DNA from: an uncultured Alphaproteobacteria bacterium
GTDB lineage: Bacteria; Pseudomonadota; Alphaproteobacteria; UBA8366; GCA-2717185
Direction: 5' to 3'
Length of the DNA: 64,000 nt
NCBI GenBank assembly: GCA_943788635.1
Contig: CALSRA010000028.1
Coordinates: forward strand, 38,520-102,519
Positions 5,154 through 57,899 of the stretch are shown piece by piece. How positions within the stretch are numbered: the stretch's first letter is position 1; every line of letters starts with the position of its first letter. The notes under the pieces are model-generated. The model was not told the origin of the DNA, ran no database searches, and saw only the letters and a program-made list of their open reading frames with translations. Position numbers and translations under genes: made by a program.

Positions 5154-6585
5154 TAGCGGATCGCCACGTGCAACAATTGTTGCATTCGTATCAAGGCTGT
5201 TCATCAGATCTGCCAGCGGCCGCTGGCATTCAAATACGATTGTGTCAGCGTATCCCGACAGCATTGGCACATAGCGGCTAAACTGCAGGGTGTCCCCGAA
5301 ACCCTGTTCCGCATGCACCAGTAATTTGCCGTTCTCAAGCGGTGCGCCGTCCCATGGAGCGCTATTAAACTGTCGTTGTGTTACGTCGCTGCATTTCAGT
5401 CGTGATTCGTAATTGCACCAGCCATTCTTGAAATCTGCGGAAAGCAACTGGGCGATGCCAAGGCCTTTTCGCAGTTCCGCGTTTTCAGGCGCTAATCCCA
5501 AAGCGCGTTCATACGCTATGATCGCCTCATCCGGCCGGTTCATATTAAGCTGGGCGAGGGCAAGACTGCCAAGAATCCGGTAATCATCCGGCGCGGATGC
5601 CAGCGCTGCACGGTACTGCTCGATAGCTTCGTCCAGCCGTTCTTCTTCGCGCAGAGAATTGGCGAGATTAAGATGCCCGTGAGCCCAGTTCGGACGAAGC
5701 CGAAGAACGTTGCGGAATTGCATTTCCGCCTGGTCATGCTGGCCTGACCGGGTGAGAATTACGCCGAGGTTATTAATAATTTCCGGATCGTCCGGCCGCA
5801 GGCGCATCGCGATATCGAGTGCGTCTTTTGCGGCTGAAATTTCGCCGGCGTCCAGCAGCGCAAGTCCAAGGTTATTGTGTGCCGATGCCAGTTCCGGCGT
5901 ATGTGAGACCGCCAGGCGGGCATATGCGATTGCCTCATCAATGCGACCGCATCCGCGCATCGCCGCAGACAGCGCGCTTTCGCATTCCGGCCAGTATTTG
6001 CCGGGTTCGGTGCCAAGAAGAGCGGACTTGAACTGCTCCACGGCGGCAACGGGTTCGCCCGCGTGATGGAACGCTAATCCAAGCTGGTATTGTATCGCGG
6101 GGTCTTCGGCGGATTGATTCAGCGCGCCCTGCAAGGTTTTCACTGCGTCCAGAGGTTGCCCGGCGCCCAGTTGCAGGTTCGCGAGATGACGTAGGGTTTC
6201 AATTTCGTCGGGCTTCAGGACGACATACTGACTCCATGCAAGAATGGCCTGATCGGTGCGGCCGGCGTTTTCCAGACATTCAGCAAAGCTGCGGCTGAAT
6301 GTAGGGTTCATCTGGTCCAGGCTTACCGCGCGCATGAAGTAACTTATTGCCGCGGTAAATTCCTGTGTCCGTGTCGCAATATGGCCCAGGATATGGAACG
6401 CTTCGGCATTTTCCGGAAAGCTGGCGATAATACCCTGGCATATCACCGCTGCAGTTGGGTATTGACGCTCGTTTTAGTGCCACACGGCCTTTTGCAGCAA
6501 TTCGCCGGGAGTGCCGACAAAGGGTTCGCCGTCCTTTCGGTCGGAGTCCGTGGTCACCGCGTAAGGCCCTTTCAGTAAGAAACAT
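5154..6585 (-). pseudogene. TPR-repeat protein with a C-terminal GT9/heptosyltransferase-like domain (FlmG-like architecture); hit three times
   Basis: Multiple TPR repeats are followed by ...LLVHAEQGFGDTLQFSRYVPML. The 3' end is cut by the IS-C terminus, and the stop codon TGA is the first 3 nt of the IS. There is an in-frame TAA at 6476-6474 (...LLQKAVWH*NERQYPTAAVICQGII...). A probable +1 frameshift lies in TTT at 6570-6572, between the ATG at 6585 and the main frame. Confidence 0.6.
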
Positions 6586-6671
6586 CCGAATCCCGAATGG
6601 TGTCGATTCGAATATCTGGCTGGCCCCTTGTCAATTGAATTAGTCCGGAAGAGAAGGCTGTAGGATACTAG

Positions 6672-7628
6672 TTACCGAAGAAAGTTAAGCAGCAACAGAC
6701 TTTGAATTCTGGCGATCGTGGCGAAGGATGCCTCCAGGGATACCTGTTCAATATTAAGGCGGGTAATCGCTTCAGCGGGATCCACTTGCTCGATGTCGAT
6801 AATTGTCTGTTCAGCAAATGCTGCAAAATTTTCATGCTTGATATTGACGTCCCGCAGCAGGACCCGGTTGAGCTCCACTTCCGAGAATAGCTCATTCAAT
6901 GTCTTTTCGCCCACCGGTGGTGCCTCGATGGCAACGGTCAATAAAGCAATGGCGTCGTCGACGGCAGTGACTTCCGCGGCACTGGGCGGGGATGTAAACG
7001 TGATTTCCGATATAGCGTCGAAGGCGCGAATAACACGCTCAATCGACGGTTCATTCGCCTTGACGCCGTAGTTGATAACGAAGTCTTCATCGATCCTGGA
7101 TTGTTGCGTGACGTTGTCGCCGCCATACCAGTCGGTATCCGCTACTGCCGGGAAGGGGGGCACCGTCGGTGGTGTATATGTGCCGTTATTGAGGTCGACA
7201 GGTTTGTTCTGGATATTACCGCCGGCAAACAGGAAACGGCTTTCGTCTTTCACGTTGAGCAGGTCCGAGATCTGATCAAGCAGTCCCTGTGCCAGTGCCG
7301 GCAGGCCGATGACATTGGCGGTTTCACCGTTTTTGGCATTCAGCAAAGTCGTGCGGAATTCATGCGAAATTCGCTCGACTCGTTCGAGCGAGAAGCTCAT
7401 CAATTCGAGGCGGCGTTCGGTGGTTTCGATATTGGAACGGAATTGTTCCACCCTGGAAAATTCGTTCCGTACGCTGACAAGGCGGCCGGCTTCCTGGCCG
7501 AGGCCAGCAAAATCCTGCGCCTTCAAACCGGTTCCCACCTGGGTCTGTGCTTCGAACAGGCGTTCCTGCGTATTCAGGGCGGTAAATACCGAGAAGCGGC
7601 TTTGGGCGATTGTGGCTATTCTGGACAA
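6672..7628 (-). CDS. flgL: flagellar hook-associated protein 3 (FlgL)
   Basis: The protein is 318 aa with flagellin-like N- and C-terminal helices, and it lies directly downstream of flgK. Confidence 0.8.
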   Translation of the reverse strand: MSRIATIAQSRFSVFTALNTQERLFEAQTQVGTGLKAQDFAGLGQEAGRLVSVRNEFSRVEQFRSNIETTERRLELMSFSLERVERISHEFRTTLLNAKNGETANVIGLPALAQGLLDQISDLLNVKDESRFLFAGGNIQNKPVDLNNGTYTPPTVPPFPAVADTDWYGGDNVTQQSRIDEDFVINYGVKANEPSIERVIRAFDAISEITFTSPPSAAEVTAVDDAIALLTVAIEAPPVGEKTLNELFSEVELNRVLLRDVNIKHENFAAFAEQTIIDIEQVDPAEAITRLNIEQVSLEASFATIARIQSLLLLNFLR

Positions 7629-7638
7629 TGCGCTGCTC

Positions 7639-9765
7639 CTATCGGACCGAATTAATCAAGGCCTCAAGCATTTCCGAAGCGACTGTGAGCACCCGTGCCG
7701 ATGCGCTGAATGCATTTTCAAGGATAACCAGTTCTGCAAGTTCTTCGTCGACGTTGACGCCGGCATCATTCGTCTGCCGGAAGACCAGTGTTTCCAGGAA
7801 GACCTCATTGAATTGCTTGTCAGTACGGGCATCCGAGGTGAGTGAGGATTGGAGGTCGACGATCTGGGCGGCAAAACTGATAATCGTCGTTGATCCGGAA
7901 TTGATGCCGCCGGTTCCCGCGAAATTCAGATTGGTGCCGAAAATGCCAGCGATGGAATTGGCAATTGCGCCGTCACCAATCGACGTACCGACGTCGCCGA
8001 CAGCGGCGGTCAGGTCGAGCTGCCCGCGAGACAGCAGGTTGGTATTGTCGGTGATGGCACTATTCACCGCGATGACATTGGCGATACCCGTGTCGTTTGG
8101 AATTGTGTTCAGTGTCGTCAGCAGCGTTCCGGAATCCGAAATGATAAAATTGTCGCTTTGCGCATCTGTAATCGTGAGGCGGCGACCACCGGAATCGTCC
8201 GTTACCGACGCGGAAATTCCCTGCGCGGTCAATGCGGCGGTTCCGTTGATCGAAGCCGCAATAGCTTCCAGTGAATCACCGGTGGCGTAAGTCACCCCGG
8301 CGCCGGCCGTTCCGTCAAACCGGAAGGTTAGTGTGCCTGCTAATCCGACAGCAGTGGTGCTGCTGGCCAGCCGACCGGTTGAATATGAATCGTAGTCACT
8401 GGCGTTGGTACCGGTCGTCAGAAAGTCGTTTAATCCGAAGAAGTGGGAAAAGCCGCGGGTTAAGCCGCCGGCGACGGTTACGGCGCTGGTGTTTTCGCCA
8501 ATGGATATGCCCTGGTTTGCTGCCTGCGCCTGGATCTCCAGTTTACCGTCCGCATTCACAGATGCGGGTGTCCCGGTAAGCCCGGCATTTATCGCTGTAA
8601 CCACATCGGCGACTGTTGCGGTGGCGCCCAGTCCGGCCAGGTTTATGTCGGTGAATTCGACAACTGCCCCCGTCGTCTGATCCAGTACTGCAATGCGTAC
8701 TGACCCGGTCCCGGCAAAGGCATCTGTCGCGGCAAGACTATGTGTTCCTGTCAAGGTTGCCGGCGGTGGGAATGCCGTTCCCTGATTGTGCAAGGCATTG
8801 ATTTGTGACGTCAGAACCGAAGAAAGGCGATCCATCTCGCTTTGCAGGTTTGGCAGAATGGCATCCCGCACGTCGATCAGGCCTGCAATCTCGCCTTCTG
8901 AGATCTGGGTAGTGATGTCGTTTGCCCCGGTCACGCGATCCGCCGTACCGACGTAAATACCGTCGATGCTTCCGGGGTAATTCGCGTCTCCCGGCTGCAC
9001 AAACGCGGTGCTGGCGTCGGTCTGGGAAGCAGAGTTATGCGACAGACTGAACAATGATCCTTCGCTCAACAACGTCCGGCCACCACCGGTGAATATACTC
9101 ACCTTGCCACTGCCCGCTTCGAACGTCCGAATATCGATAAGTTGTGAAATCTGGGCGATGGCGACGTCCCGCTGGTCGCGCAGTTCGCCGTCAGGTTCGT
9201 TCGATGCGACAGCCTGGGCTATTTTGGAATTGAGGTTTTCCACAAAGGTAAGCTGCTGGTTGATTGTATCGATGCCGGTCGAAATCGACTGGTCAGCTTC
9301 AGCCCGAAGTGACTGTATGGCCGTGGTAAGTTGGCTGATCTGCACCATTGTCTTGCGGGCGTCATTGACCGCAGTGAATCGCGCCGCATCGGATTCCGGC
9401 GACAATGCCAGCGTTTCGAAATTATTGTTCAGCGTCGTCAATCCGGCAGCAAAGGTATCATTGTTGTCCGGGGTGCCCAGGAAGCCCTGTATCTGTGACA
9501 GGAACTGTTCACGCGCGTTGATAGCCCCCAATTTGCCACTCTGGTCTCGAACCTGTTCGACCAGGAACTGGTTAACGTTGCGCGTGACATCTATGACATC
9601 GACGCCAGCGCCCAGATCAACCAACCGCCGAGGCGAAAGTTCGACCTGTTTCCGGGTGAATCCGTCGGTGTTTACGTTGGCGATATTGTTGGCATTAACC
9701 TGCAGGGCCAGTTGGCTGGCCTGAATGCCGGAAAGTGCGGTTTGAAGGGCGAGGGATATCGACAT
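7639..9765 (-). CDS. flgK: flagellar hook-associated protein 1 (FlgK)
   Basis: The protein is 708 aa. The N-terminus MSISLALQTALSGIQASQLALQVNANNIANVNTDGFTRK is the flagellar basal-body rod/HAP motif. Confidence 0.9.
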   Translation of the reverse strand: MSISLALQTALSGIQASQLALQVNANNIANVNTDGFTRKQVELSPRRLVDLGAGVDVIDVTRNVNQFLVEQVRDQSGKLGAINAREQFLSQIQGFLGTPDNNDTFAAGLTTLNNNFETLALSPESDAARFTAVNDARKTMVQISQLTTAIQSLRAEADQSISTGIDTINQQLTFVENLNSKIAQAVASNEPDGELRDQRDVAIAQISQLIDIRTFEAGSGKVSIFTGGGRTLLSEGSLFSLSHNSASQTDASTAFVQPGDANYPGSIDGIYVGTADRVTGANDITTQISEGEIAGLIDVRDAILPNLQSEMDRLSSVLTSQINALHNQGTAFPPPATLTGTHSLAATDAFAGTGSVRIAVLDQTTGAVVEFTDINLAGLGATATVADVVTAINAGLTGTPASVNADGKLEIQAQAANQGISIGENTSAVTVAGGLTRGFSHFFGLNDFLTTGTNASDYDSYSTGRLASSTTAVGLAGTLTFRFDGTAGAGVTYATGDSLEAIAASINGTAALTAQGISASVTDDSGGRRLTITDAQSDNFIISDSGTLLTTLNTIPNDTGIANVIAVNSAITDNTNLLSRGQLDLTAAVGDVGTSIGDGAIANSIAGIFGTNLNFAGTGGINSGSTTIISFAAQIVDLQSSLTSDARTDKQFNEVFLETLVFRQTNDAGVNVDEELAELVILENAFSASARVLTVASEMLEALINSVR

Positions 9766-9796
9766 TGATAGGGTTACCTATCCGTTGCTCTGGTGT

Positions 9797-11741: not shown

Positions 11742-11785
11742 TCCGGCCTTCAACTTCGGATTAAGAGAGATTTCGCTATAGCTGT

Positions 11786-14826: not shown

Positions 14827-15612
14827 TTAACGCATGTTTCCGAGTACAGACATCATCTGGTCTGATGTTTCGATAACCTTGGAATTCATCTCATAGGCCC
14901 GCTGTGCGGTGATGAGATTGGATATTTCCTCGACAACATTGACATTGGATGTTTCCAGGAAACCCTGCTGTATCGTGCCTATACCGGTCGATCCCGGTGT
15001 GCCTGTCGTCGGCGTCCCGGATGCGGGAGTCTCGAGGAACAGGTTGTCACCAACCGCCAGCAATCCCGCTTCGTTGGAGAAAATGGCAAGGTCCAGTTGG
15101 CCCACATTGGCCGGCGCGACCTGTCCGTCCTGTTTTACCAGCACCTGACCATTGGGATTGATCGACACATCGACGGCGTCCGTTGGGATTGTAATGGCGG
15201 GTTCGACGATAAACCCATCTGCTGTGACAAGTTCACCGTTCGCGCTCAACTGAAAGGAGCCGGCGCGCGAGTAGGCGATTTCGCCATTCGGTAACTGAAC
15301 CTGAAAGTAGCCATTGCCATTGATGGCAAGGTCGAAGGTGTTTTCGGTAAGGGTCAGGTTGCCCTGTTCGGTTATCCGGTAAACGGCAGCTGTTTTGACG
15401 CCCAGGCCAACTTGAACACCTGCGGGTACAATCGTGCCTGCATCGGATGATTCCGATCCGACTCGTCGCAAATTCTGATACAGCAGGTCCTGGAACTCTG
15501 CCCGGCGCCGGGTATAGGCGGTCGTATTCATATTGGCGATATTGTGGGAAATGACCTCAACGTTCAGCTGTTGCGCCAGCATTCCGGTCGCGCCGATACT
15601 AAGTGATCGCAT
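14827..15612 (-). CDS. flgG: flagellar distal rod protein FlgG
   Basis: The protein is 261 aa. It has MRSLSIGATGMLAQQLNVEVISHNIANMNTTAY at the N-terminus and the C-terminal ...LETSNVNVVEEISNLITAQRAYEMNSKVI. Confidence 0.92.
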   Translation of the reverse strand: MRSLSIGATGMLAQQLNVEVISHNIANMNTTAYTRRRAEFQDLLYQNLRRVGSESSDAGTIVPAGVQVGLGVKTAAVYRITEQGNLTLTENTFDLAINGNGYFQVQLPNGEIAYSRAGSFQLSANGELVTADGFIVEPAITIPTDAVDVSINPNGQVLVKQDGQVAPANVGQLDLAIFSNEAGLLAVGDNLFLETPASGTPTTGTPGSTGIGTIQQGFLETSNVNVVEEISNLITAQRAYEMNSKVIETSDQMMSVLGNMR

Positions 15613-15623: not shown

Positions 15624-16352
15624 TTAACTTTGCCGCAGACGCGTAAGCTTTCCGATAGCCCGCATCGCTTGGTCGTGGTCGGATTTAATAAGGTTTGCCG
15701 TCGACTGGTAGGATCGATGTATTTCGATCATGCGTGTCATTTCGACGATTGCCTGCACGTTCGATTGTTCGAGCATCCCCTGCATCATTTTGCTGTCGTT
15801 CGCTGCCTGGGGCTGCTGGTCGCCGGCGGCATACTGGCCATAGGCTTCGCGTTTGAGCGCTGAGTCGTCTTCGAACTCGAATAATCCAATTTGCCCGATT
15901 GTGCCGTTGTCACCACTGACGGTGCCGTCTGCAGAGATTGTCAACTGGCCGGAACCGACCGGTACGACAATAGGACCGCCCTGGGCCGTTAATACGGCTT
16001 CGCCCTGACCATTGACGATCTGTCCCTGTCCATCGAGCTGGAATTGTCCGTGACGGGTGTATTTCGCGCCGTCCTGCGTTTCGATAGAAAAATACGCGGG
16101 CCCGGAAATTGCCAGATCCAGCGCATTGCCTGTCGCCGTGATAGGGCCTTCCGACAGATCACGGGACATCCCGTAATCCTGCACGAACGAAAGCGACTCT
16201 TTCTGATTCGGCTCATCGACATATTCGCGAAAAATCATTTTTTCCGCTTTGTATGCGGGCGTATTCATGTTGGCGATATTGTGCGCAACAACACTCATTT
16301 CGCGTCGTAAGGCGGCTTGCCGGGATAGCGCGATGTATCCTGCGTTTTCCAT
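15624..16352 (-). CDS. flgF: flagellar proximal rod protein FlgF
   Basis: I chose the start at the ATG 16352-16350 (MENAGYIALSRQAALRREMSVVAHNIANMNTPAYK). The C-terminal ...LEQSNVQAIVEMTRMIEIHRSYQS fits the family. Confidence 0.88.
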   Translation of the reverse strand: MENAGYIALSRQAALRREMSVVAHNIANMNTPAYKAEKMIFREYVDEPNQKESLSFVQDYGMSRDLSEGPITATGNALDLAISGPAYFSIETQDGAKYTRHGQFQLDGQGQIVNGQGEAVLTAQGGPIVVPVGSGQLTISADGTVSGDNGTIGQIGLFEFEDDSALKREAYGQYAAGDQQPQAANDSKMMQGMLEQSNVQAIVEMTRMIEIHRSYQSTANLIKSDHDQAMRAIGKLTRLRQS

Positions 16353-17199: not shown

Positions 17200-17304
17200 T
17201 TGCACAATTGATTGCCGTACATGGATTGATTGTCAGGACGTGCGACAATGGCAGACGATGAAGAAGAAGTTGACGACGATGCCGTAGCAGCCGAATGAGC
17301 GGCA

Positions 17305-18345
17305 ATGGCCGGCGACGACGAAGAAGGCGGCGAGGGTGACGACGATGCCGTGGCGGATGAATGGGCGGCGATGGCCGATGACGATGGAACCTCCGCCCGG
17401 GTTCTGAATCAGGACGAAATTGATAGCCTTCTTGGTTTTCAGGAAGGTGGTGATGGCGGTGGTGACCGGTCGGGCATCGAGGCAATCATCGACAGCGGCA
17501 TGGTGTCGTATGAACGCCTGCCAATGCTGGAGGTCGTATACGATCGCCTTGTGCGAATGATGTCGACGTCGCTGCGGAATTTTACGTCGGACAATGTTGA
17601 AGTCAGCCTGGACAATATTACGTCGATCCGTTTTGGCGATTACCTGAATTCTATCCCGCTGCCGGCAATGCTATCGGTCTTCAAGGCCGAGGAATGGGAT
17701 AACTACGGGCTAATAACGGTCGATAGTTCCCTGATCTATTCGATCGTCGACGTGTTGCTGGGCGGACGCCGCGGCACCGCGGCAATGCGTATCGAGGGGC
17801 GCCCCTATACGACGATTGAACGGGGCCTGGTCGAACGGATGGTCAATGTCGTGCTGGCGGATCTCTCCGCCGCATTCGACCCGCTGAGTTCGGTTACGTT
17901 CCGCTTTGACAGGCTGGAAACCAATCCACGTTTTGCGACCATCGCACGGCCGGCAAATGCTGCAATTCTGGCGCGTTTGCGGATCGACATGGAAGATCGC
18001 GGCGGCCGGCTCGAGCTGATGCTGCCCTATGCAACGCTGGAACCTGTCCGTGAACTGCTTCTGCAGATGTTTATGGGCGAAAAATTCGGTCGGGATTCGA
18101 TCTGGGAAAACCATTTGGCGACGGAACTCTGGTTTACCGATGTTGAAGTTGAAGCCGTATTGGACGAAATATACCTGCCCCTGAATGACGTGATGAACTG
18201 GAAGGTTGGTACGCAGATTCAGTTACAGGCAAAACCGGACAGCGAAATTATGCTACGATGTGGCGCGGTTCCGTTGTTCACGGCGTCAATGGGACGGAAG
18301 AGCGGCTTTGTTGCGGTTCGAGTGAATGAACGTCTGATGGAGTAA
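17305..18345 (+). CDS. fliM: flagellar motor switch protein FliM
   Basis: The protein is 346 aa. It has the CheY-P-binding-type motif VLNQDEIDSLLG followed by ...YERLPMLEVVYDRLVRMMSTSLRNFT.... A possible longer form starts at the ATG 17248 but is interrupted by an in-frame TGA at 17296-17298. Confidence 0.88.
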   Translation: MAGDDEEGGEGDDDAVADEWAAMADDDGTSARVLNQDEIDSLLGFQEGGDGGGDRSGIEAIIDSGMVSYERLPMLEVVYDRLVRMMSTSLRNFTSDNVEVSLDNITSIRFGDYLNSIPLPAMLSVFKAEEWDNYGLITVDSSLIYSIVDVLLGGRRGTAAMRIEGRPYTTIERGLVERMVNVVLADLSAAFDPLSSVTFRFDRLETNPRFATIARPANAAILARLRIDMEDRGGRLELMLPYATLEPVRELLLQMFMGEKFGRDSIWENHLATELWFTDVEVEAVLDEIYLPLNDVMNWKVGTQIQLQAKPDSEIMLRCGAVPLFTASMGRKSGFVAVRVNERLME

Positions 18346-18817: not shown

Positions 18818-19484
18818 ATGCCTCAGGTCAGACTCGTACCCGTTATGATTTTTGTGGCGTCCTCTGATGCTGACAGTAAAGCTGGGCAGTATCTGGAGTG
18901 CTATTATCGACGATGGTGTCGGTTTGGAGGTCCAGACCGCTGCGGCGCAGCAGGAGCCCAAAGACGAGGCGGCGGGCGGCCCGGTGGCGCCGAAAGCCGA
19001 GCAACAGGCAGCAATTGAGAAACCGGAGCCGGAAAGCAAAGCGAAAGAGGCTACGGACGTTTCGAAGATGAGTTACTCCGAAATTCGCCTGTTGCAGGAA
19101 CTGGCAGAGCGACGTGAATTGCTCGACAAGCGGGAGCGGGAGCTTGAACAGCGTTCGGTTTTGTTGAAGGCCGCGGAACAGCGCATTGTCGAAAAGCAAG
19201 ACGAGTTTAAAAAAATAAAGCTTGAAATCAAAGACTTGCTCGATATTAAAGAAAAAGAAGAATCCGAACGGCTTAACCGGCTGGTTGGCATTTACTCGAA
19301 TATGAAACCAAAAGATGCCGCAACGATTTTCAACGAACTCGATATGGGCGTGCTGTTGGACGTTATGCAGTCGATGACCGCGCGCAAGGTCGCGCCCATT
19401 ATTGCGTCCATGGATGCGGACCGGGCGCGACAATTGACACAACAGCTTGCTGAACGTCGGGACGTGCCCCAGATCCCGAACTAG
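18818..19484 (+). pseudogene. MotE-like flagellar motility protein (MgtE-N-type domain), +1 frameshift after codon ~11
   Basis: ATG 18818 gives MPQVRLVPVMIF..., and the main frame (18852..19484) continues ...LMLTVKLGSIWSAIIDDG...LVGIYSNMKPKDAATIFNELDMGVLLDVMQSMTARKVAPIIASMDADRARQLT. The T5 run at 18849-18853 is the slip site. Confidence 0.55.
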
Positions 19485-25200: not shown

Positions 25201-25674
25201 CGGAAGCACTTGATGATGATCGCAGAAGAATACATGCGCGCGCGTTGTTTGATACCGGAAAGACCCAAGATGCCGTTGAGCTTCTGGCGGGGGATGTCTC
25301 GCGGAATGCGGATCTCCTTCGTGCTGATATCCAGTGGCGATCCGAAAACTGGCCAGAGGCAGCAAAGGCCTTGCGACGCCTTGCGGGCGAACCGCCTGCG
25401 GAAGGCACGACCTTCGATCGGACAGAAGCCCAGGTGGTGTTGAATTGGGCGGCGGCTCTTCGACTCAGTCAGGATGAAAGTGGCCTTGCTGTATTGCGAG
25501 AACTCTATGGCCCCGGGATGGAAGCCAGTCCGCTTGCGAATGCATTCCGGTTTATCGCCAGTCCGTCAGGTTCGGACGGTCCATTGGATCTGGTCAGCGT
25601 GACAAGTCGTCTGGCGGAAACGGATGTGTTTGATGCATTCCTGGCGGAATATCTTGAGGATAACCGCAGACGTC
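22226..25674 (+). pseudogene. giant secreted AMIN-like / Pro-Ala-rich / TPR-like protein; +1 frameshift and 3' end replaced by IS21 copy B
   Basis: A signal peptide is followed by two AMIN-like modules (GAHPSYGRVVFDWPTP..., GEHPTYTRLVFDWNSA...), a Pro/Ala-rich linker, and then a helical repeat region (tracked ORF 23835..25694). The frames join by removing one C from CCCC at 23558-23561 (...MVPNSNLSP-FARRDGTNWIVEFREG...). The last 6 codons and the stop come from the IS. Confidence 0.6.
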
Positions 25675-25768
25675 TGAGAACGCCGGAGCAATAATCCACC
25701 ACTGAAGCGGCCAGATTGTCTGGTTGTTGGCCGGAGTAAAAATCCGCCAGTGGTAAGCTTTCTGCATT

Positions 25769-27322
25769 TTGCAGAGGGCGGGGATGAAGCAAGTGGAATT
25801 GTATGGTCGCGTGCGTTATGCGGTAAAAATTCAAGGTATGAGCCGCCGCGAAGCGGCAAGGTTGTTCGGCATTGACCGTCGCACGGTTGATAAGATGTTG
25901 GCGTTCTCGACCCCACCTGGCTATCGCCGCAAGAAGGCGCCGAACCGGCCCAAGCTTGATCCGTTTGTCGGTATTATCGACCAGATCCTTGAGGACGATA
26001 CCAAACGTCTGAAGAAGCAGCGTCATACGTCGAAGCGGATCTTTGAGCGGCTTCGTGATGAATATGGCTTTGCCGGTGGCATCACCATCGTGAAGGATTA
26101 TGTTTTTGCCGCCCGGCAACGTCAGCGGGAGATGTACGTGCCGTTGAGCCATTCTCCGGGCCATGCCCAGGCAGATTTTGGTGAAGCGGATGCAGTCATC
26201 GGCGGCATCCAGTGCCGGGCCCATTATTTTGTCATGAGCCTTCCTCATAGCGACGCCTGTTTCGTTTGTGCTTATCCCGCAGCGACCACGGAAGCATGGC
26301 TAGATGGCCACAACAGGGCCTTCAGCTTCTTTGGCGGCATCCCTAAATCGATCCTGTATGATAACGACAAGGTTCTGGTGGCGCGGATATTGCCAGATGG
26401 CACACGACAACGGACACGGGCATTCAGCGGCCTCCAGTCTCATTATCTTTTTGAAGATCGTTATGGCCGCCCAGCCAAAGGGAACGACAAGGGTAACGTG
26501 GAAGGCATCGTCGGTTTTGCCCGCCGGAACTTCATGGTGCCGGTTCCACAGTTCGAGAGTTGGGATGCCTTCAATGCTCACCTGGAAGAGCAATGCCGCA
26601 AGCGCCAACGTGATGTTTTGCGTGGCGAGCGCGAGAGTATCGGTGCGCGGCTTGTTCGTGATCAGGATGTGCTGGCAGACTTGCCTCCCGTCCTGTTCGA
26701 TGCCTGTGATAGACAGGCCACGCGGGTCAGTTCCCTATCCCTGGTACGGTATCGAAACAATGATTATTCGGTGCCCGTCGCCTTTGGCCATCAGGACGTC
26801 TGGGTCCGTAGCTATGTCCATGAGGTCATCATCGGCTGCGCCAGTGAGGAGATCGCTCGTCATCCCCGTTCCTATGATCGGGAGGATCTGATCTTCAACC
26901 CGATCCACTATCTGCCTTTGCTGGAGAAGAAGGTCGGTGCCCTGGACCAGGCGGCGCCGTTGGTGGGTTGGGATCTGCCAGATGTATTCGTAACTCTGCG
27001 TCGCCTCCTTGAAGCCCGGATGGGCAAACCGGGGAAGCGGGAGTACGTACAGGTCCTAAGGCTGCTTGAGATATTCGACCTCAATGACCTACATGGCGCG
27101 ATCAGAGATGCCCTGCGCTTAAGCGCGATTAGCTTTGACGCCGTTAAACATCTGCTGCTGTGCCGCATAGAGCGGCGTCCGCCAAAGCTCAATCTGGACA
27201 TCTATCCTTATCTGCCACGGGCTCAGGTGGCGACGACATCGGCGGCCAGTTACATGAACTTACTGCACGGGGCGAAGAGAACCGATAGCTCTGATAAGGA
27301 AGTAATGGGCGGTGCATTATGA
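25769..27322 (+). CDS. istA: IS21-family transposase IstA, copy B
   Basis: The ORF is 517 aa and identical in protein sequence to 2994..4547. Confidence 0.92.
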   Translation: MQRAGMKQVELYGRVRYAVKIQGMSRREAARLFGIDRRTVDKMLAFSTPPGYRRKKAPNRPKLDPFVGIIDQILEDDTKRLKKQRHTSKRIFERLRDEYGFAGGITIVKDYVFAARQRQREMYVPLSHSPGHAQADFGEADAVIGGIQCRAHYFVMSLPHSDACFVCAYPAATTEAWLDGHNRAFSFFGGIPKSILYDNDKVLVARILPDGTRQRTRAFSGLQSHYLFEDRYGRPAKGNDKGNVEGIVGFARRNFMVPVPQFESWDAFNAHLEEQCRKRQRDVLRGERESIGARLVRDQDVLADLPPVLFDACDRQATRVSSLSLVRYRNNDYSVPVAFGHQDVWVRSYVHEVIIGCASEEIARHPRSYDREDLIFNPIHYLPLLEKKVGALDQAAPLVGWDLPDVFVTLRRLLEARMGKPGKREYVQVLRLLEIFDLNDLHGAIRDALRLSAISFDAVKHLLLCRIERRPPKLNLDIYPYLPRAQVATTSAASYMNLLHGAKRTDSSDKEVMGGAL

Positions 27323-28083
27323 CCGATACGCCACAGCTCTTGCTATCCCATCACCTGAAAGCGCTCAGGCTCCCCACCTTCCTCAGGGAATACGACAAGC
27401 TGGCCCGCCAATGCGCCGCCGAGGGTGTCGATCATGTCCGCTATCTCGTCCGCCTGACCGAACTGGAATTGATCGACCGGGAACGCCGCATGGTCGAACG
27501 GCGGATCAGACTGGCCAAGTTCCCCGCCGTCAAAAGTCTGGACAGCTTCGACTTCAAAGCCATCCCATCGCTGAACAAGATGATGGTTCTAGAACTGGCC
27601 CGATGTGAATATGTCGAGCGACGTGAGAACGTTATCGCGCTCGGTAACTCAGGCACCGGTAAAACCCATATCGCCCTCGGTCTCGGCCTGGCGGCTTGCC
27701 AGAAAGGCCTCAGTGTTGGATTTACCACGGCGGCCGCCCTGGTCCACGAGTTGATGGAGGCCAGGGATGAGAAACGCCTGCTGCGGTTCCAAAAACAATT
27801 GGCAAAATACAAGCTGCTGATTATCGATGAGCTGGGCTTCGTGCCACTCAGCAAAACAGGGGCCGAGCTTTTATTCGAGGTGTTCTCTCAGCGTTACGAG
27901 CGTGGCTCAACCCTGCTGACCAGCAATCTCCCCTTCGATGAATGGACCGAGGTGTTCGGATCCGAACGCCTGACAGGGGCTTTGCTCGACCGCCTAACCC
28001 ACCACGTTCATATCCTCGAGATGAACGGCGACAGTTACCGCCTGAACCAGAGCCAAAAACGGCAGACCCCCCAAAAAACCTGA
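27319..28083 (+). CDS. istB: IS21-family ATP-binding helper IstB, copy B
   Basis: The protein is 254 aa with Walker A GNSGTGKTH and Walker B LLIIDELG. Its start overlaps the istA stop (ATGA). Confidence 0.92.
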   Translation: MTDTPQLLLSHHLKALRLPTFLREYDKLARQCAAEGVDHVRYLVRLTELELIDRERRMVERRIRLAKFPAVKSLDSFDFKAIPSLNKMMVLELARCEYVERRENVIALGNSGTGKTHIALGLGLAACQKGLSVGFTTAAALVHELMEARDEKRLLRFQKQLAKYKLLIIDELGFVPLSKTGAELLFEVFSQRYERGSTLLTSNLPFDEWTEVFGSERLTGALLDRLTHHVHILEMNGDSYRLNQSQKRQTPQKT

Positions 28084-28283
28084 CCAACGAGAACATGGTT
28101 GACCCGGTGGGCCCACAGGCACCTCCCGCGCTGCTTCGCTCCGCGTAACGCTAAAGCGCTACGCAAAGCAGCACGGGTCCCTCCTATGGACTAACGGGAC
28201 AACCCGCAACACCGAGTATTACATCATACAAAGTGGTGTACTTTTACTCCGGCCAATGGTGTATTTTTACTCCGGCGTTGACA

Positions 28284-29137
28284 GGGGCGAGCGGGTACAG
28301 ATGCAGATGGTGCATGGTCGTGATCTCGGGCTGGTTAAAGTCGATCAGGGGCAGTTGGATCAGGTCGTCATCAATTTGGCGGTCAACGCCAGGGACGCAA
28401 TGGCATCGGCGGGCGGAGAGCTCACTATTGCAACCGACAGGGTGACGGTTACTTCGCCGTTGCGGGCGCATGGTGAAGTGGTGGCACAGGGAGATTATGT
28501 AACGATCTCCGTGCGCGATACGGGGGCTGGAATCAAGCCGGACAATCTTGAGCGAATATTCGACCCATTCTTTACTACGGTCGGGGCTGGTACGGGGTTG
28601 GGACTGTCCACCGTTTATGGAATTGTAAAATAGACCGGCGGTTATATTCTCGTCGAAAGTGGTGGAGAGAATAAGGGGACGACGTTTACCGTCTTCCTGA
28701 AACGGTTTGATCTGCCGGAGAATGAAGAGGTCGCGCTCACCGAAGATAACGACCAGCCGAAAGATGTCACAGGCGGTGGTACCGTTTTCCTCGTTGAGGA
28801 TGAAGACCCCGTGCGCTTGTTCGGGGCGCGGGCGCTGCGTAGCAAGGGGTATAAGGTTATAGAGGCCCGTAATGGTGAAGCCGCTCTAGAGCTGATGGAA
28901 AGCGAGCAATTCGACTTGCTTATCACGGACATGGTAATGCCGAAGGTGGATGGCGCCGCCGTCATCCGGGAAGCCCGTCGTGTTAGGGGGAATATTCCCG
29001 TTATCTGTATCTCTGGCTATACGGAAGAATCTATCCTTCGAGAAGTGGAGGCAATTGACAATGTATCGTTTCTGCCAAAGCCATTTAGTTTGCAGCAACT
29101 CGCTGGCAAGGTAAAAGAGGCAATGGAGTCAAAGTGA
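28284..29137 (+). pseudogene. hybrid sensor histidine kinase remnant (HATPase_c + REC), 5'-truncated by IS21 copy B and carrying an in-frame TAG
   Basis: It has the N-box ...QVVINLAVNARDAM and the G-boxes DTGAGI and GTGLGLSTVYGIVK. TAG at 28631-28633 is followed by TGGYILVESGGENKGTTFTVFL, where the family has VKQ-GG. A REC domain follows (TVFLVEDEDPVRLF...LLITDMVMPKVDG...LPKPF). There is no HisKA or sensor part. Confidence 0.8.
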
Positions 29138-32277: not shown

Positions 32278-32367
32278 TGAGAACGGCAGTGCAAAAGTTG
32301 GCCACGGAAGTGGCGTGATAATCTCGCTGCGGGCAGCGTAAAATGTTGCCACTTTGGCCCTTTCTGG

Positions 32368-33885
32368 TTGCAGGGAGGGCGGGAGATTTTAGTCGTGGAT
32401 TTGTATTTGAAGGTTCGCCTTGCGCGTCGAGGTGGCATGAGCGAACGGTCGGCAGCAGGCCATTTCGGGATTTCGCGCGCGAGCGTAAAGAAGATGATGA
32501 GCTTTTCGGTCCCGCCCGGATATCAACGAACGGCTGAGATCAAGCGGCCCAAACTTGATGGCTTTACCGGCTTCATCGACCAATGGCTGCTGGAAGACCT
32601 CAGCCGGAACCGCAAGCAACGACATACCGCCAAGCGTGTTTTTGAGCGGCTACGGGACGAGCACGGCTTCGAGGGCGGCTACACGACGGTCAAGAATTAT
32701 GTCCGTGAACATGGCCGGCGCAGCCGGGAGATGTTTGTTCCGCTTGCCCATGCCCCCGGCCATGCCCAAGCGGATTTTGGCGAGGCGATGGTTGTGATCG
32801 GCGGTGTCGAACAAAAGGCGCATTTCTTTGCGCTGGACCTGCCCTACAGCGATGCCTGCTTTGTGCGGGCTTATCCTGCGGCAGTATCCGAGGCTTGGGT
32901 CGACGGCCATGTCCACGCCTTTGCCTTCTTTGGCCGTGTCCCGCAGTCAGTTCTCTACGATAACGACCGGTGCCTTGTTGCGAAGATCCTGCCGGACGGA
33001 TCGCGCAAGCGGACCAGACTGTTCAGCGGGTTCCTGTCTCATTACTTCATCCAGGATCGGTATGGTCGCCCGGGCAAGGGCAACGATAAAGGCGCTGTCG
33101 AGGGTCTGGTCGGATATGCCCGGCGCAACTTCATGGTGCCCATCCCTCATTTTGCCACGTGGGAGGCGTTCAATCTTTGGCTGGAAGCGCAATGCCGCAA
33201 GCGTCAATCAGATGTCTTGCGCGGGCATGGCGACAGCATCGGGCAGCGCCTCGCCCGCGATCTTGACGCTATGATGGATCTGCCCGCGTGCCCGTTTGAC
33301 GCCTGCGATCAGGCCACCGGCCAGGTGAACTCGCAATCCTTGGTGCGCTACAAAACCAACGATTATTCGGTTCCTGTCGCCTACGGGCACCGCGATGTCT
33401 GGCTTCGCGGCTATGTCGATCAGGTGGTCATTGGCTGTGGCGGTGATGTCATCGCCCGCCACCCCCGGTGTTGGGATCGCGAAGACATGGTCTTTGACCC
33501 GGTGCATTATCTACCCCTTTTGGAGCAGAAGGTGGGTGCCCTTGATCAGGCGGCCCCATTGGCGGCGTGGGATCTGCCCGAAGAGTTTGCAACCCTGCGC
33601 CGTCTGATGGAAGCCCGGATGATTAAGGCGGGGCGGCGTGAGTATGTGCAGGTCTTGCGGCTCTTGGAGACATTCGAGATGGCAGACCTGCAGGTTGCCG
33701 TCAAAAACGCACTTCGCATGGGGGCCATTGGGTTTGACGCCGTCAAACACCTCGTGCTGTGCCAGGTCGAGAAGCGGCCGCCCAAGCTGGATCTGGATGT
33801 CTATCCCTATCTGCCAAAGGCCAATGTCGGCACGACGTCGGCGGCCAGCTATATGTCCCTGATGAAGCGGGGGCAGGCAGCATGA
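32368..33885 (+). CDS. istA: IS21-family transposase IstA of IS-C
   Basis: The protein is 505 aa. It is clearly related to the 517-aa IstA of the other IS but distinct from it. Confidence 0.9.
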   Translation: MQGGREILVVDLYLKVRLARRGGMSERSAAGHFGISRASVKKMMSFSVPPGYQRTAEIKRPKLDGFTGFIDQWLLEDLSRNRKQRHTAKRVFERLRDEHGFEGGYTTVKNYVREHGRRSREMFVPLAHAPGHAQADFGEAMVVIGGVEQKAHFFALDLPYSDACFVRAYPAAVSEAWVDGHVHAFAFFGRVPQSVLYDNDRCLVAKILPDGSRKRTRLFSGFLSHYFIQDRYGRPGKGNDKGAVEGLVGYARRNFMVPIPHFATWEAFNLWLEAQCRKRQSDVLRGHGDSIGQRLARDLDAMMDLPACPFDACDQATGQVNSQSLVRYKTNDYSVPVAYGHRDVWLRGYVDQVVIGCGGDVIARHPRCWDREDMVFDPVHYLPLLEQKVGALDQAAPLAAWDLPEEFATLRRLMEARMIKAGRREYVQVLRLLETFEMADLQVAVKNALRMGAIGFDAVKHLVLCQVEKRPPKLDLDVYPYLPKANVGTTSAASYMSLMKRGQAA

Positions 33886-49715: not shown

Positions 49716-50381
49716 TTATGTGAAAAGCCGCGCATGAATATGACCGGCGGCGCCGATGCCGGGTTCGACAATAACGTTGAATCCGGCATCGGCGAACGTC
49801 AGGGACTTTTCGCGGTCCCGTGTTCCGTGTCCGCTCAACAGGTGGATACCGCCGGCGAGACCGGCATTCTTCCCGGCTTCGATGTCACTGGCGGAATCAC
49901 CGATAATCCAGGACCTTGCAAGGTCGAGATTCAGGGCTGTCGCGGCATCGTGTATCATGCCGGGTCCCGGCTTGCGCCATGCATGGCCCGCGCGGTCATA
50001 GGGCGGTTTCCCTTCCGCGTGATAGGCGCAGGCGAGCACCATCTCGAAATGCGCATCGGCGGTGGCAAGATGGCGCGACAGGGCTTCCTGAATCGCGGCG
50101 AATTCCGGCCAGCCATAATAGCCCCGCCCGACACCGGACTGGTTCGTGACCAGAATGACGGGAATACGCGAGGCATTGCACAGGCGAATGGTTTCCGCGG
50201 CGCCGGAGAGAACCTCCATATCCTCGATCCGGTGCAGGTAGTTGGTTTCCGCAACGACAACCCCGTCACGGTCCAGAAATATCGCCGGGCGAGGGGTCGC
50301 TGCCGGAGATGCATCAGAATTAATCTGCCGCCACAATCCGGGGCTGCCCGGAACGGTCGATAGCGGATCCGGTTCCCTCAC
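49716..50381 (-). CDS. gmhB: HAD-IIIA phosphatase, D-glycero-D-manno-heptose 1,7-bisphosphate phosphatase (GmhB)-like
   Basis: The motifs FLDRDGVVV, ...VILVTNQSGVGRGYY..., ...RKPGPGMI... and ...IIGDSASDIEAGKNAGL are present. The gene overlaps the upstream GT2 gene by 4 bp. Confidence 0.7.
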   Translation of the reverse strand: MREPDPLSTVPGSPGLWRQINSDASPAATPRPAIFLDRDGVVVAETNYLHRIEDMEVLSGAAETIRLCNASRIPVILVTNQSGVGRGYYGWPEFAAIQEALSRHLATADAHFEMVLACAYHAEGKPPYDRAGHAWRKPGPGMIHDAATALNLDLARSWIIGDSASDIEAGKNAGLAGGIHLLSGHGTRDREKSLTFADAGFNVIVEPGIGAAGHIHARLFT

Positions 50382-51088: not shown

Positions 51089-51089
51089 T

Positions 51090-53227: not shown

Positions 53228-53767
53228 CGTTTGCGTGTGGCTTTGCTGTATCGTGGAAGATTCTGCCGGGTTTGGGCGTATCTGATGCGAATCATGTCAG
53301 TGTTTGGCGACATTTGCGGACATTTTGAGGGAATGCAGCCATTGCGAAGTACAGCTGTATTCGAAACAGGAGCCGGGATATCGGGATGGATTTGCCCTGG
53401 CCTTGAATTCCGCAGCCTCGATGCGGGGCATCGAGTAATTCTCCCGCAAGTGTAAAAAGCCAGTTAAAGCACAGTACTGGGAATCTTGAACAACGGAACC
53501 ATTACTGTTTGGGAACATTTCGGGTTCGCGAAGAACACCAGAGCATATGATTTCAAGACTATCCTGCAACGGTCTGTCCTACTGTTCGGCTTTACTTCAC
53601 GATACGCATCTTTACCCTATATTTACTATATCCGTGCCACGATTCACGCTGTAAGGCAAAAGTACTAAGAAGAGCGTAACGGTTTGGAAAGACCCTAAGC
53701 GTCACATTGGTATTGGATTTGCAGGTGTCACGCGGCGCGACAAAGACAGGTGGTACAGAGGCCGGTC

Positions 53768-55820
53768 ATGAAAACGGTATATTTCAACGAGTATAACGTC
53801 CGGATGGGGAACGCGACTTACTTCCCCCTGGTGTCGGGTATTTTACGGGCGATGGTGGAATCGGTTCCGCGGTTGCGGGATGCGTATCACTTCAAACCCT
53901 TTATTTTCCATCTCGATTCGGCTGACAACGTGCTCGCCTGCTACGACGAAGCGCCGGACGTGGCCTGCTTCTCGGTGGCAATGTGGAACGAACAACTCAG
54001 CCTGCACATTGCGCGGACGCTGAAAGAACGCTGGCCAGAATGCCTGATCGTTTTTGGCGGGCCGCAACTGCCGCATTATCCGGAAGATTATTTCGCCGAA
54101 CATCCCTTTATCGATGTCGGGGTGCGTGCAGAAGGCGAGGAAGCCTTCCTGCAGTTGCTCGACCGCTTTACTGATTCGCGGGATTTCGCGGGGGTTCCGA
54201 ACGTTTCATACCGTGATCCAGAAACCGGTGCCTTCCGGCATAATACGGAAACGCCGGAATTTGACCGCGACATGCTGAAATACCCGTCGCCCTATCTGGC
54301 GGGCGTCTATGACTACATGTTCGAGGCGCATCTGGATATCGACTTTCAGGCCATCATCGAAACCAATCGCGGGTGCCCGTTCCTGTGCACCTTCTGCTAG
54401 TGGGGCCGGGGCGGGAACAGTCGCCGCTATCGCTACCATTCAATGGAACGGCTGGCAGCGGAAATCGACTGGTTCGGACGAAACAATATCCGCTTTGTGT
54501 TCAATGCGGATTCCAATTTCGGCATGCATCGCCGTGATCCGGAAATTGCCGGTTTGATTGTGGAAGCCAAGAAAAAATACGGCTTCCCGGAAAAATTCCG
54601 GACGTGCTGGGGCAAGAATACGGACGAGAATATCTTTCGGATTGCCGGCATGTTGCATGAGCATGACCTTGAAAAGGGCATCACGCTGGCGCGACAGAGC
54701 CAGAGCAAGGAAGTGCTCGGCAATATCAAGCGCGGCAATATCAAGCTGGATACCTATTCCAGCCTGCAACGGCGCTTCAACGACCTCGACGTGCCGGTTT
54801 ATACCGAGATGATCCTGGGCCTGCCGGGTGAAAGCTATGAAAGCTGGAGCGGCGGGATCGAGGAGATGCTGCAATCGGGGCTGAAGAATCAGCTGTTCGT
54901 CTATCAATGCGAAGTCTATCCGAACACGGAATTGCATGAGGCCGAGTACCGCGAGAAATTTGGTATCAAGCTGCAGCGGCTCGAACTGCGTGAAATCCAC
55001 GGCAGCGTTCGCGATGAATCCTGGGTGCCCGAATACAACGACATCATTGTCGAAACCAACGCCATGTCGAACCATGACTGGCGGCGGATGAGCAAGCTGT
55101 CGATGGTGACCATGCTGTTGCACAGCATGAAGCTTGGTTTCTATGTCATGCGGCACATGGCGTATCGATACAGCACGGGGTATGTGCCGTTCATCGAATT
55201 CTGCAGTGACCTGCTGATGGCGGAAGGCACCGGCGGACATTTCCGGCGTGAGGTAGCGGTCTTTGACAAATACCTGGACGGGATGATGGCCGGTGAGGGG
55301 CGTGGCGTTGTCATGCCGGACCATGGCGTCATCTACTGGGATAGTGAGGAAGCGGCATTCCTGCGCGTCGCCGAAGACCTTGACGGGTTCTATGCGGAAT
55401 TGCGGGATGTGGTCTGTCAGTTCCTCGATCAGAATGATATCGACTATGCGCCGGATGAAATTGCCGAAGTTGTGCGCTATCAGCGGATGTGCATGCCGCA
55501 GCCGACCCTGCCGAAGCAGACGGAATGGACCTATCAGTACAATCTGCCGGAATATTTCCATCGTTCGTTTGGGACAGATCCCGTCGGCGTGTCTCGCGAT
55601 ACGCAGGTTGTGAGCGTGCGACCCGATAGATTTCGCAGGTGACCGCGCTGATTTCGCGAAGCGGACAATCTTGTGGGGTCGAAAAAGCGGGGCTCTACTG
55701 GTGAAATGCCGTTGGGAATCAGCCGACCGTCCCTGGGTGAATTCCGAAACGCATTACGGTCTTGCAGAAGAATCCGGGCTGGCGGCATTGCCGCGCGCGG
55801 CAAATCTCGGCGGCGAATAA
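53768..55820 (+). pseudogene. B12-binding-domain radical SAM enzyme (class B, probable C-methyltransferase); in-frame TAG and +1 frameshift
   Basis: An N-terminal B12-binding-like domain is followed by ...IIETNRGCPFLCTFC, then TAG (54398-54400), then WG... in the same frame, so the CxxxCxxC cluster is intact. Near the 3' end the frame stops at 55640-55642, but the +1 frame continues GDRADFAKRTILWGRKSGALL... to 55820. The slip is at GG 55638-55639. Confidence 0.7.
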
Positions 55821-55885
55821 GGCGTGCACGCGCAGACGAAGCGTATGGGCGTACCCAGGTTATTAACCATAAAACTGCAGGCGGC

Positions 55886-56851
55886 ATGACACGTAAAAAC
55901 GATATCGATACGGCGACAGGCGAGCGGCTGTATCGAATGCTTCGATTGATCCGGCGGGTCGAGGAAGAAGTCGGACGGATATATCCGAGCGACAGAATCA
56001 AGAGCCCGGTCCATCTTTCCATTGGCCAGGAATCCGTTGCCGTCGGCGTATGTGATCCGCTGCGCCCGGATGACGTTGTCTCCGCAACCTACCGAAGCCA
56101 TGCGGGCTATCTTGCAAAAGGTGGTGACCTGCGCGCGATGTTCGCCGAGCTGTATGGCAAGGCAACGGGCAACGCGGGCGGCAAGGCCGGCTCGATGCAT
56201 CTTGTCGATATGGCACATAATGTTCTGGGGTCGTCGGCCGTTGTCGGTACGACCGTACCTATTGCGCTTGGGTATGCTTTCGCGATCAAACAGCGAAAGG
56301 AGGACCGGGTGGTTGTGGCGTTCTTTGGCGATGGCGCGACCGAGGAAGGCGTGTTTCACGAGAGTCTGAATTTTGCGTCGTTGAAGAAACTGCCGGTTCT
56401 GTTCGTCTGCGAAAATAACCACTTTGCTATTCACCAGCCGCTGAACAAACGCTGGGCGACGGATCAAATCTGCGCACGGGTTGAAACCTACGGCATTCCG
56501 GCCGAACGCATCACCGACGCCAATACGGAAACGATCCGCGATTGCACGCAGGAAGCGCTCGCCAATATCCGGTCCGGTCAAGGCCCGGCCTTCCTGGAAT
56601 GCCTGACCTGGCGCTGGCGCGAACATGTCGGTCCGGGCGAGGATTATGACGCCGGGTTCCGTGACCGCAGCGCACTGGAAGCCTGGCAGGAAAAGGACGA
56701 GGTGGAACGTATGGGCGCGGCGCTTGATGGTGCGAGCCGTTCACGGATCGATGCCGAAATCGAAGCTGAGATCGCGGATGCCATCGAATTTGCGGAACGC
56801 AGCCCGTTCCCGGAAGGCAAGGAGCTGTATGCGCATGTCTACGCCGAGTGA
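55886..56851 (+). CDS. TPP-dependent dehydrogenase E1 alpha-like subunit
   Basis: The start is MTRKNDIDTATGERLYRMLRLIRRVEEEV. It contains ...HLSIGQESVAVGV..., ...FFGDGATEEGVFHESLNFASLKKLPVLFVCENN... and is 321 aa. Confidence 0.8.
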   Translation: MTRKNDIDTATGERLYRMLRLIRRVEEEVGRIYPSDRIKSPVHLSIGQESVAVGVCDPLRPDDVVSATYRSHAGYLAKGGDLRAMFAELYGKATGNAGGKAGSMHLVDMAHNVLGSSAVVGTTVPIALGYAFAIKQRKEDRVVVAFFGDGATEEGVFHESLNFASLKKLPVLFVCENNHFAIHQPLNKRWATDQICARVETYGIPAERITDANTETIRDCTQEALANIRSGQGPAFLECLTWRWREHVGPGEDYDAGFRDRSALEAWQEKDEVERMGAALDGASRSRIDAEIEAEIADAIEFAERSPFPEGKELYAHVYAE

Positions 56852-57899
56852 ATCGGGCCGTCTACTGACTTATGTCGATGCCCTGTGCGAAGGGCAGGCG
56901 ATGGAAATGCGCCGTGATGACGAGGTGTTCGTCTTCGGCCTCGACGTGGATGATCACAAGGCCATTCAGGGGTCGACCCGTGGGTTGCTGGATGAATTCG
57001 GACCCGAACGTGTCTTCACCACACCGCTGAGCGAGGACGCCATGACCGGCGTTGCGATCGGCGCGGCCATGGCGGGGATGCGGCCGGTGCATGTGCATAT
57101 TCGCATGGACTTCCTGATGCTGTGCATGAACCAGCTCGTTAACATGGCGGCCAAAAGCCATTACATGTATGGCGGTCAGGTCTCCGTGCCGATGGTCGTG
57201 CGCTGCATGATCGGCAAGTCCTGGGGGTAGGGGGCGCAACACAGTCAGGGGCTGCATTCGATGTTGATGCATGTCCCTGGGCTGAAAGTGGTGGCGCCGT
57301 CGAATGCCTATGACGCCAAGGGCCTGCTGGCCACGGCCATTCGCGACAACAACCCCGTGATCTTTGTCGAACATCGGTTGCTGTATTTCACTGAGGCCTA
57401 TGTGCCCGAGGAAAATTATGCGGTGCCGTTCGGCGTGGCCCGAATCGTCCGCAAGGGGGATGCGCTGACCATTGTCGGGGTCTCCAACATGCTGGTCGAA
57501 TGCTTGCGTGCGGCGGAACTGCTGGCGGAAGTCGGGATCGAAGCGGAAGTGATCGATCCGGTATCGCTGGTGCCACTGGATATCGAAACGATCACCCGGT
57601 CAGCCGCACGTACGGGCAAGTTGCTGGTCGTTGACAATGCCTGGACCAATTGTGGCGCCAGCGCGGAAATCATCGCCGGTGTTGTGGAACGTACCGACCG
57701 TCCGGTGATGGCACGCCGCATGGGCTATGCGCCCGTGACCTGCCCGACCACGCCGGTGCTGGAAGACGACTATTATCCGAACCCGGTGACCATTGCGACC
57801 GCTGTTCATACGATGGTGCGCCCGGATCAACCCGTCTGGGAGCCCGATCCGGAACATGCGAAACTTGCCTATCAGGCCCAGTTCAGGGGACCGTTCTAG
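56829..57899 (+). pseudogene. TPP-dependent dehydrogenase E1 beta-like subunit, in-frame TAG
   Basis: ...LTYVDALCEGQAMEMRRDDEVFVFGLDV...CMIGKSWG is followed by TAG (57228-57230) and then GAQHSQGLHSMLMHVPGLKVVAPS... in the same frame. This family typically has a sense codon there (often Gln). Confidence 0.78.

Follow-up and report, generated by a model that had tools for sequence, protein, structure and literature searches.

Nonsense mutations and insertion sequences disrupt conserved genes in one strain of an uncultured alphaproteobacterial lineage

Introduction

Pseudogenes formed by nonsense mutations and insertion sequence (IS) insertions under relaxed selection are familiar from Sodalis glossinidius, Mycobacterium leprae, Shigella, and Burkholderia mallei, and this pattern of decay is known in recently host-restricted or bottlenecked bacteria. 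Here we analyze a stretch of 64,000 nt (hereafter the window, whose coordinates are used throughout) from contig CALSRA010000028.1 (the source contig, 136,110 bp, present in NCBI and ENA) of an uncultured Alphaproteobacteria bacterium. Five genes in the window, encoding a TPR-glycosyltransferase, the flagellar protein FliM, a hybrid histidine kinase, a B12-binding radical SAM enzyme, and an E1beta subunit, are each interrupted by an in-frame nonsense codon (Table 1).

The window resembles the described cases in that conserved genes are cut by single-base stops at positions where close relatives have sense codons, several IS copies occupy strain-specific positions, the non-synonymous/synonymous ratio is near-neutral, and the mutated genes include flagellar and surface-glycan ones. 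It differs in that the decay is known here from a 64-kb window alone, and in that most of its disruptions, 21 frameshifts, are apparent assembly errors. We consider it likely that the five stops reflect ordinary pseudogenisation by point mutation and IS insertion in an IS-rich, Rhodospirillales-like alphaproteobacterial lineage under weak purifying selection.

Results

Relatives of the window and the ancestral codons

Close relatives were recovered by protein searches and contig look-ups in other public samples, and many of the recovered contigs (L numbers; proteins are given P numbers) showed 99.3-99.9% DNA identity to the window. These relatives split into a near-identical clade and a sister clade diverged by ~0.7% (L082/L189, L191, L102). 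Since near-identical contigs exist, the ancestral codons could be read directly. A scan of genome collections with E1alpha, in which the closest match had 78% amino-acid identity and the best were uncultured Alphaproteobacteria/Rhodospirillaceae metagenome-assembled genomes, was useful for orthologue residues only, given this ceiling. Homology across the stops was aligned with tblastn and phmmer. All five nonsense codons reported in a preliminary description of the window were confirmed, with homology continuing on both sides of each.

The E1beta frame showed 86% identity over 350 aa across its TAG. The near-identical contigs have CAG at this site, with C in 10/10 of them, and 73/74 orthologues have Gln. 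The stop lies within the pyrimidine-binding domain (Transket_pyr) and should therefore inactivate the enzyme.

The FliM frame was aligned with 99% identity over 365 aa across the TGA, and its homologues carry Pfam PF02154 and PF01052. At 17298, G is found in each of the 12 near-identical contigs, and P0121 and the clade FliM orthologues read AAEWAAMA at this site. All clade FliM proteins have an acidic N-terminal extension (17248-17400) with two (D/E)EWAAMA repeats before the LNQDEIDSLL motif. A natural start downstream of the TGA was ruled out, as near-identical relatives start upstream and read through. An ATG at 17305, which is fliM codon 20 and lies three codons downstream of the TGA, opens a reading frame (17305-18345) of 346 aa. 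If the TGA is genuine, a FliM of 346 aa retaining the second EWAAMA repeat and LNQDEIDSLL could result from restart at this codon.

Across the TAG in the kinase remnant, the frame showed 74-75% identity over 283 aa, and PF02518 and PF00072 match its two fragments. The orthologue in L104 is 583 aa long, and the best match in a metagenome scan with the remnant was 75%. Gln occupies the stop site in 14/14 orthologues with 54-75% identity (CAG in 11, CAA in three), and the ancestral codon was most likely CAG. The residue varies in more distant kinases. Near the G1/G2 region (28590-28600, FFTTVGAGTG), two residues have apparently been lost in frame relative to the closest orthologue, FFTTKEVGAGTG; this loss would be further decay of a dead kinase gene.

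The radical SAM frame showed 77.5% identity over 623 aa across its TAG. The six closest proteins (P0001-P0006) read CTFCYWGRGG, placing Tyr at the stop, and the codon reads TAC in L082, a near-identical relative, as well as in L002, the closest orthologue. All nine near-identical relatives covering position 54400 have C there. The stop comes just behind the CxxxCxxC cluster, and loss of enzyme activity is expected.

The TPR-glycosyltransferase frame was aligned with 99% identity over 468 aa across the TAA. The full-length homologue P0241 (667 aa, 99% identical) reads AVWHYNERQ at this site, and its DNA in L102 has TAC. Among the other orthologues this residue is Y, V, F, or L, with no instance of Q. 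The L102 alignment ends at 5154, the point at which the window gene is truncated. Near-identical relatives of this gene likewise begin upstream and continue through the site, which rejects a natural start downstream of the TAA. P0426, a 468-aa Logan protein, keeps Tyr28 and ends in the identical truncation (ARGDPL); the IS truncation is thus older than the TAA, which arose in an already dead gene.

Two of the five stops originated from CAG>TAG (the kinase codon being taken from orthologues) and the remaining three from TGG>TGA, TAC>TAA, and TAC>TAG, respectively, and the mutated base pair was G:C in 5/5. The preliminary description had expected Gln or Trp at every site. This holds for the Gln of E1beta, for the Trp of fliM, which had been predicted from the second repeat copy, and for the family Gln (VKQxGG) in the G2 region of the kinase. 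The proposed CAA>TAA origin in the TPR-glycosyltransferase gene gave way to Tyr TAC in a 99%-identical relative. The radical SAM TAG was correctly located between CPFLCTFC and WG, but it too replaced a Tyr codon.

Table 1. Coordinates of the interrupted genes, their stops, the IS elements, and the private one-base indels in the window.
Feature	Position	Strand	Description
TPR-glycosyltransferase remnant	5154..6557	-	Codons 1-468 of 667; GTG start at 6557; cut by IS end at 5154
TAA stop	6474..6476	-	Codon 28 of TPR-glycosyltransferase; TAC (Tyr)>TAA, C>A transversion on the coding strand
fliM gene	17248..18345	+	365 codons
TGA stop	17296..17298	+	Codon 17 of fliM; TGG (Trp)>TGA, G>A transition
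Kinase remnant	28284..29137	+	About the last 283 of ~583 residues; HATPase_c and receiver domains; HisKA half absent
TAG stop	28631..28633	+	ATP-binding domain of the hybrid histidine kinase remnant (GIVK-stop-TGGY); Gln>TAG, C>T transition
Radical SAM gene	53768..55820	+	683 codons in intact relatives; private +G at 55614 shifts the C-terminus
TAG stop	54398..54400	+	Codon 211 of B12-binding radical SAM gene, directly after CPFLCTFC; TAC (Tyr)>TAG, C>G transversion
E1beta gene	56835..57899	+	Transket_pyr and Transketolase_C; 354 aa in every relative, 131 + 212 aa in the window
TAG stop	57228..57230	+	Codon 132 of E1beta (KSWG-stop-GAQHSQ); CAG (Gln)>TAG, C>T transition
Complete IS21-family element	25668..28284	+	IstA 517 aa, IstB 254 aa; cuts kinase gene at 28284
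Second IS21 copy, inverted, split	2654-4648 and 636-1282		Inverted repeats I1 and I2
End of second IS21-like element	4642..5153	.	Inverted copy 32278-32789; inverted repeat I3, 512 nt, 100%
Private indels	17067, 18652, 18861, 20374, 23558, 44351, 47303, 47626, 48401, 51130, 51177, 51620, 55614, 60705, 60862, 61260, 61934, 63189, 63395, 63573, 63957		One base each

Occurrence of the stops outside the source contig

Four of the five stops recurred outside the source contig. Three were found in Logan contigs of ERR9769286: the TPR-glycosyltransferase TAA in L093 (5124-16265, with one mismatch at 16056), the kinase TAG in L187 (28256-32305, 100% identical), and the E1beta TAG in L081 (56711-60518, 100% identity over 3808 bp). 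All 13 window-private substitutions that fall within these contigs were present there as well. The fragments derived from the nonsense codons also occur in Logan, namely a 431-aa TPR-glycosyltransferase fragment, a 108-aa receiver-domain fragment, and the 131-aa and 212-aa E1beta fragments. The fourth stop, that of the radical SAM gene, was present in another Logan contig of 5781 bp, which encodes a 210-aa N-terminal fragment ending in CPFLCTFC, followed by a 458-aa fragment to the natural end. At 54495 and 55490 this contig has the window-private changes Y>F and R>C, respectively, and it is without the window P>L (54333), D>Y (55163), and +G at 55614. The fliM TGA is the sole stop of the five without independent support, and it lies in an error-rich stretch.

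The first base of L081 directly follows a window-private C>T (56710), and L093 has its mismatch to the window at 16056. These observations suggest that two closely related sub-strains coexist in the ERR9769286 sample.

Selection on the private substitutions and repeated loss of the radical SAM gene

Private substitutions were compared over 43 kb of the window in all. In 45.9-64 kb, where the sister clade roots their polarity, we identified 31. Among the 30 coding changes, 20 were non-synonymous, eight synonymous, and two nonsense. A no-selection model, in which the spectrum of this region was applied to the intact genes, expects 19.4 non-synonymous changes, 9.5 synonymous changes, and 1.1 stops; the share of random substitutions creating a stop in these genes is ~3.7%. 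The nonsense codons are not enriched, and their number fits unselected recent mutations.

Nonsense alleles were also detected in the relatives. Those of the radical SAM gene were Y59 TAC>TAA (L192, L194), S137 TCG>TAG (L189), and S225 TCA>TAA (L197), while the gene was intact (683 aa) in L190, L191, L193, and L196. The other alleles affected a TPP enzyme (E354 GAA>TAA in L192), a GHMP kinase (E139 GAA>TAA in L189 and L191), and FliL (E19 GAA>TAA in L086), in addition to a trivial last-codon stop in an AMIN-like gene (L096). These amount to seven independent nonsense events in relatives.

Together with Y211 of the window, the radical SAM gene thus has four independent nonsense alleles, which are only suggestive of relaxed constraint or selection for loss. 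Loss of sugar-modification genes, the radical SAM gene above all, could have been selected repeatedly and independently rather than left to drift, possibly through surface or flagellar glycan change under host or phage pressure, or through the dropping of a cobalamin-dependent step. The Y59, S137, Y211, and S225 alleles occur among ~11 strains, with the gene intact in four. Of seven independent nonsense events across an 18-kb region, four fall in the radical SAM gene, which makes up 11% of its length (post-hoc binomial p ~0.004). E1beta and the GHMP kinase of the same sugar-modification cluster are also mutated. However, the test is post hoc with few events, relaxed constraint on the radical SAM gene alone gives the same pattern, and the window-private substitutions are neutral-looking overall. 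We therefore regard selected loss as unlikely; if it were true, the radical SAM and E1beta stops of the window would be part of a convergent loss-of-function pattern.

Mutational spectrum

The 31 substitutions in 45.9-64 kb comprised C>T (10), G>A (6), G>T (3), C>A (3), G>C (3), C>G (1), A>T (2), T>A (1), and T>C (2). In a sequence of 58% G+C, 22 changes ran from G/C to A/T, of which 16 were transitions and six were G:C>T:A transversions, against two from A/T to G/C. By our own tally, the private substitutions confirmed in other assemblies gave ~12 G/C-to-A/T changes versus three in the reverse direction.

Bacterial mutation is generally biased toward A/T (Hershberg and Petrov 2010, PMC2936535; Hildebrand et al. 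2010, PMC2936529). The 22 versus 2 ratio in 45.9-64 kb and the location of all five stops at G:C pairs agree with this universal bias, whereas the bias was not seen in 16-26 kb, a stretch that has no outgroup to root it. The G/C-to-A/T substitution bias raised in the preliminary description is seen in the rooted part of the 43 kb compared, and not in the unrooted part.

The preliminary description had further attributed all five stops to GC>AT transitions, which the TAC>TAA (C>A) and TAC>TAG (C>G) transversions refute. An origin of all five in one process of G:C>A:T transition, be it cytosine deamination, the action of a deaminase toxin, or the loss of uracil repair, is very unlikely. Three of the five are indeed C>T or G>A, as are 16 of the 31 private substitutions in 45.9-64 kb, but the codons of near-identical relatives identify the other two as Tyr transversions, and six of the seven nonsense events in relatives are G:C>T:A transversions. 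The spectrum corresponds to the ordinary mixed A/T bias of bacteria (PMC2936535, PMC2936529). The six of seven in relatives exceed, if only modestly, the 34% share of G:C>T:A changes expected from the window spectrum. We make no claim of an oxidative-damage signal from the excess of G:C>T:A changes (7/12 nonsense events versus an expected 34%; binomial p ~0.07-0.08).

Distinguishing mutations from assembly errors

Compared with its relatives, the window carries 21 private one-base indels (18 insertions and three deletions), which mostly lengthen short runs from one to two or from two to three bases. They split the genes for a cyclase, the TPP enzyme, a 944-aa glycosyltransferase, CheZ, FliL, NodZ, and others. 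None was found in the 19 kb that L093, L187, and L081 of ERR9769286 span, or in ~25 related contigs, and the +G at 55614 was absent from all other assemblies compared. Exact look-ups of the frameshifted open reading frames (glycosyltransferase, 539 aa; CheZ, 88 aa; NTP-transferase, 299 aa; NodZ, 374 aa; the AMIN-like protein split into 619 + 432 aa; cyclase, 108 aa) returned the source contig only. An intact 246-aa cyclase (P0446, in Logan and an ENA assembly) has both window substitutions, R158C and P42L, and neither of the two insertions. Because the indel-derived frames are private and an intact cyclase with the window substitutions exists elsewhere, assembly errors in the source contig very likely explain the one-base frameshifts. 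The sole one-base frameshift across the ~25 related contigs was in an A8 run at 19209, which splits an MgtE_N-like flagellar gene (L086, L092). The private indels resemble the homopolymer-type errors of long-read or flow-based assemblies, all being 1 bp and most of them run-lengthening, with 18 insertions versus three deletions. Such errors account for the frameshifts of the window, but not for its stops.

It is highly improbable that every one of the five stops is an error of sequencing or assembly, as the frameshifts appear to be. The 21 indels, unseen in other assemblies and with products confined to the source contig, suggest that the contig is error-prone, the private substitutions at 49724, 54333, and 55163 were not reproduced, and the fliM TGA was reproduced nowhere. 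Nevertheless, three stops occur in ERR9769286 Logan contigs with 99.99-100% identity and the radical SAM stop in another Logan contig, and related short-read assemblies hold similar nonsense mutations of their own. The earlier argument that substitution-type stops point to biology is borne out by the recurrence of four of the five, as the frameshifted frames do not recur.

Several observations weigh against reading the stops as genuine mutations from a mixed, A/T-leaning spectrum. If the reads of ERR9769286 built the source contig, the agreement between the two amounts to read support, not to an independent sample. In 45.9-56.7 kb, the Logan versions closest to the window lack 3 of the 10 checkable private amino-acid changes (49724, 54333, 55163); a few substitution errors or minor variants may therefore be present in the source contig. 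The fliM TGA sits between two error-like private insertions (17067 and 18652), exact look-ups of the 346-aa FliM product return the source contig only, and the nearby private changes FlgF V13A and FliM K345T have no occurrence outside it. The ancestral kinase codon rests on orthologues of 54-75% identity, the site being covered by none of the near-identical relatives. Finally, the private substitutions in 16-26 kb, which is error-rich as well as unrooted, show no A/T bias.

Further look-ups around fliM were also negative. A constructed FliM with Trp17 and the window Thr345 was absent from the searched collection, a look-up via a common 228-aa protein returned no ERR9769286 contig over 17298, and contig look-ups of the window DUF6468-136 and FliL-139 gave nothing outside the source contig.

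Translation through the stops by a reassigned code, suppression, selenocysteine, or pyrrolysine can be dismissed as exceedingly improbable: the stops do fall at conserved sense positions, as recoding would look, but all three stop codons are involved and replace Tyr, Trp, and Gln, with TAG standing for both Gln and Tyr; TGA (11), TAG (6), and TAA (5) end conserved window genes where the genes of relatives end; the 64-kb window has no tRNA genes; and strains 99.3-99.9% identical have the sense codons.

IS elements and other features of the region

The split IS21 copy is interrupted by a 1.37-kb insert holding an open reading frame of 420 aa (1367-2629). An IstA-like fragment lies at 4611-5063, and the IS end at 4642-5153 adjoins the truncated TPR-glycosyltransferase. 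The inverted IS pairs flank the flagellar region, and inversions could be mediated by them. In L183 and L185, which come from other samples, the same IS ends meet window positions 29052 and 29255, respectively, inside or after the kinase/receiver remnant. Because these junctions differ, IS insertion sites vary among strains that are otherwise >99.3% identical.

In 60500-62800, comparison with L082, L189, and L191 revealed a dense run of mostly synonymous clade differences in the GHMP kinase and NodZ genes, which suggests recombination or a separate history for this segment. Outside it, the window clade differs from the sister clade at few positions, mostly by non-synonymous changes. In the sister-clade strain L102 (JGI 3300022866, positions 1-1730), left of window position 15432, FlgG is a 113-aa C-terminal fragment beside a TPP-enzyme gene, and the flagellar cluster is thus rearranged or partly deleted in this strain.

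Discussion

The formation of pseudogenes by nonsense mutation and IS insertion is a kind of event already known. Under ordinary pseudogenisation, the five stops would be single-base nonsense mutations private to one strain, belonging to a small load of private substitutions in which purifying selection is not apparent and whose direction, where polarity is secure, is from G/C to A/T. The stops in the TPR-glycosyltransferase and kinase genes would represent secondary decay of genes already killed by IS truncation, an order of events that is presumed for the kinase. Those in the radical SAM and E1beta genes would inactivate members of the sugar-modification cluster, in which independent nonsense mutations also cause gene loss in further strains of this population. 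The cause may be relaxed selection or a small effective population, possibly connected with host association.

The poor source assembly exaggerates the damage, and the raw sequence gives the impression of much heavier decay than has really taken place. For annotation, the one-base frameshifts should be repaired or ignored, while the nonsense codons are mostly real, strain-specific pseudogenising mutations. The mechanism is corrected to a mixed, A/T-leaning spectrum that includes Tyr-to-stop transversions, in place of a single deamination-like process. The lead of note is the repeated knock-out of one radical SAM gene; the remainder is the familiar picture of gene decay.

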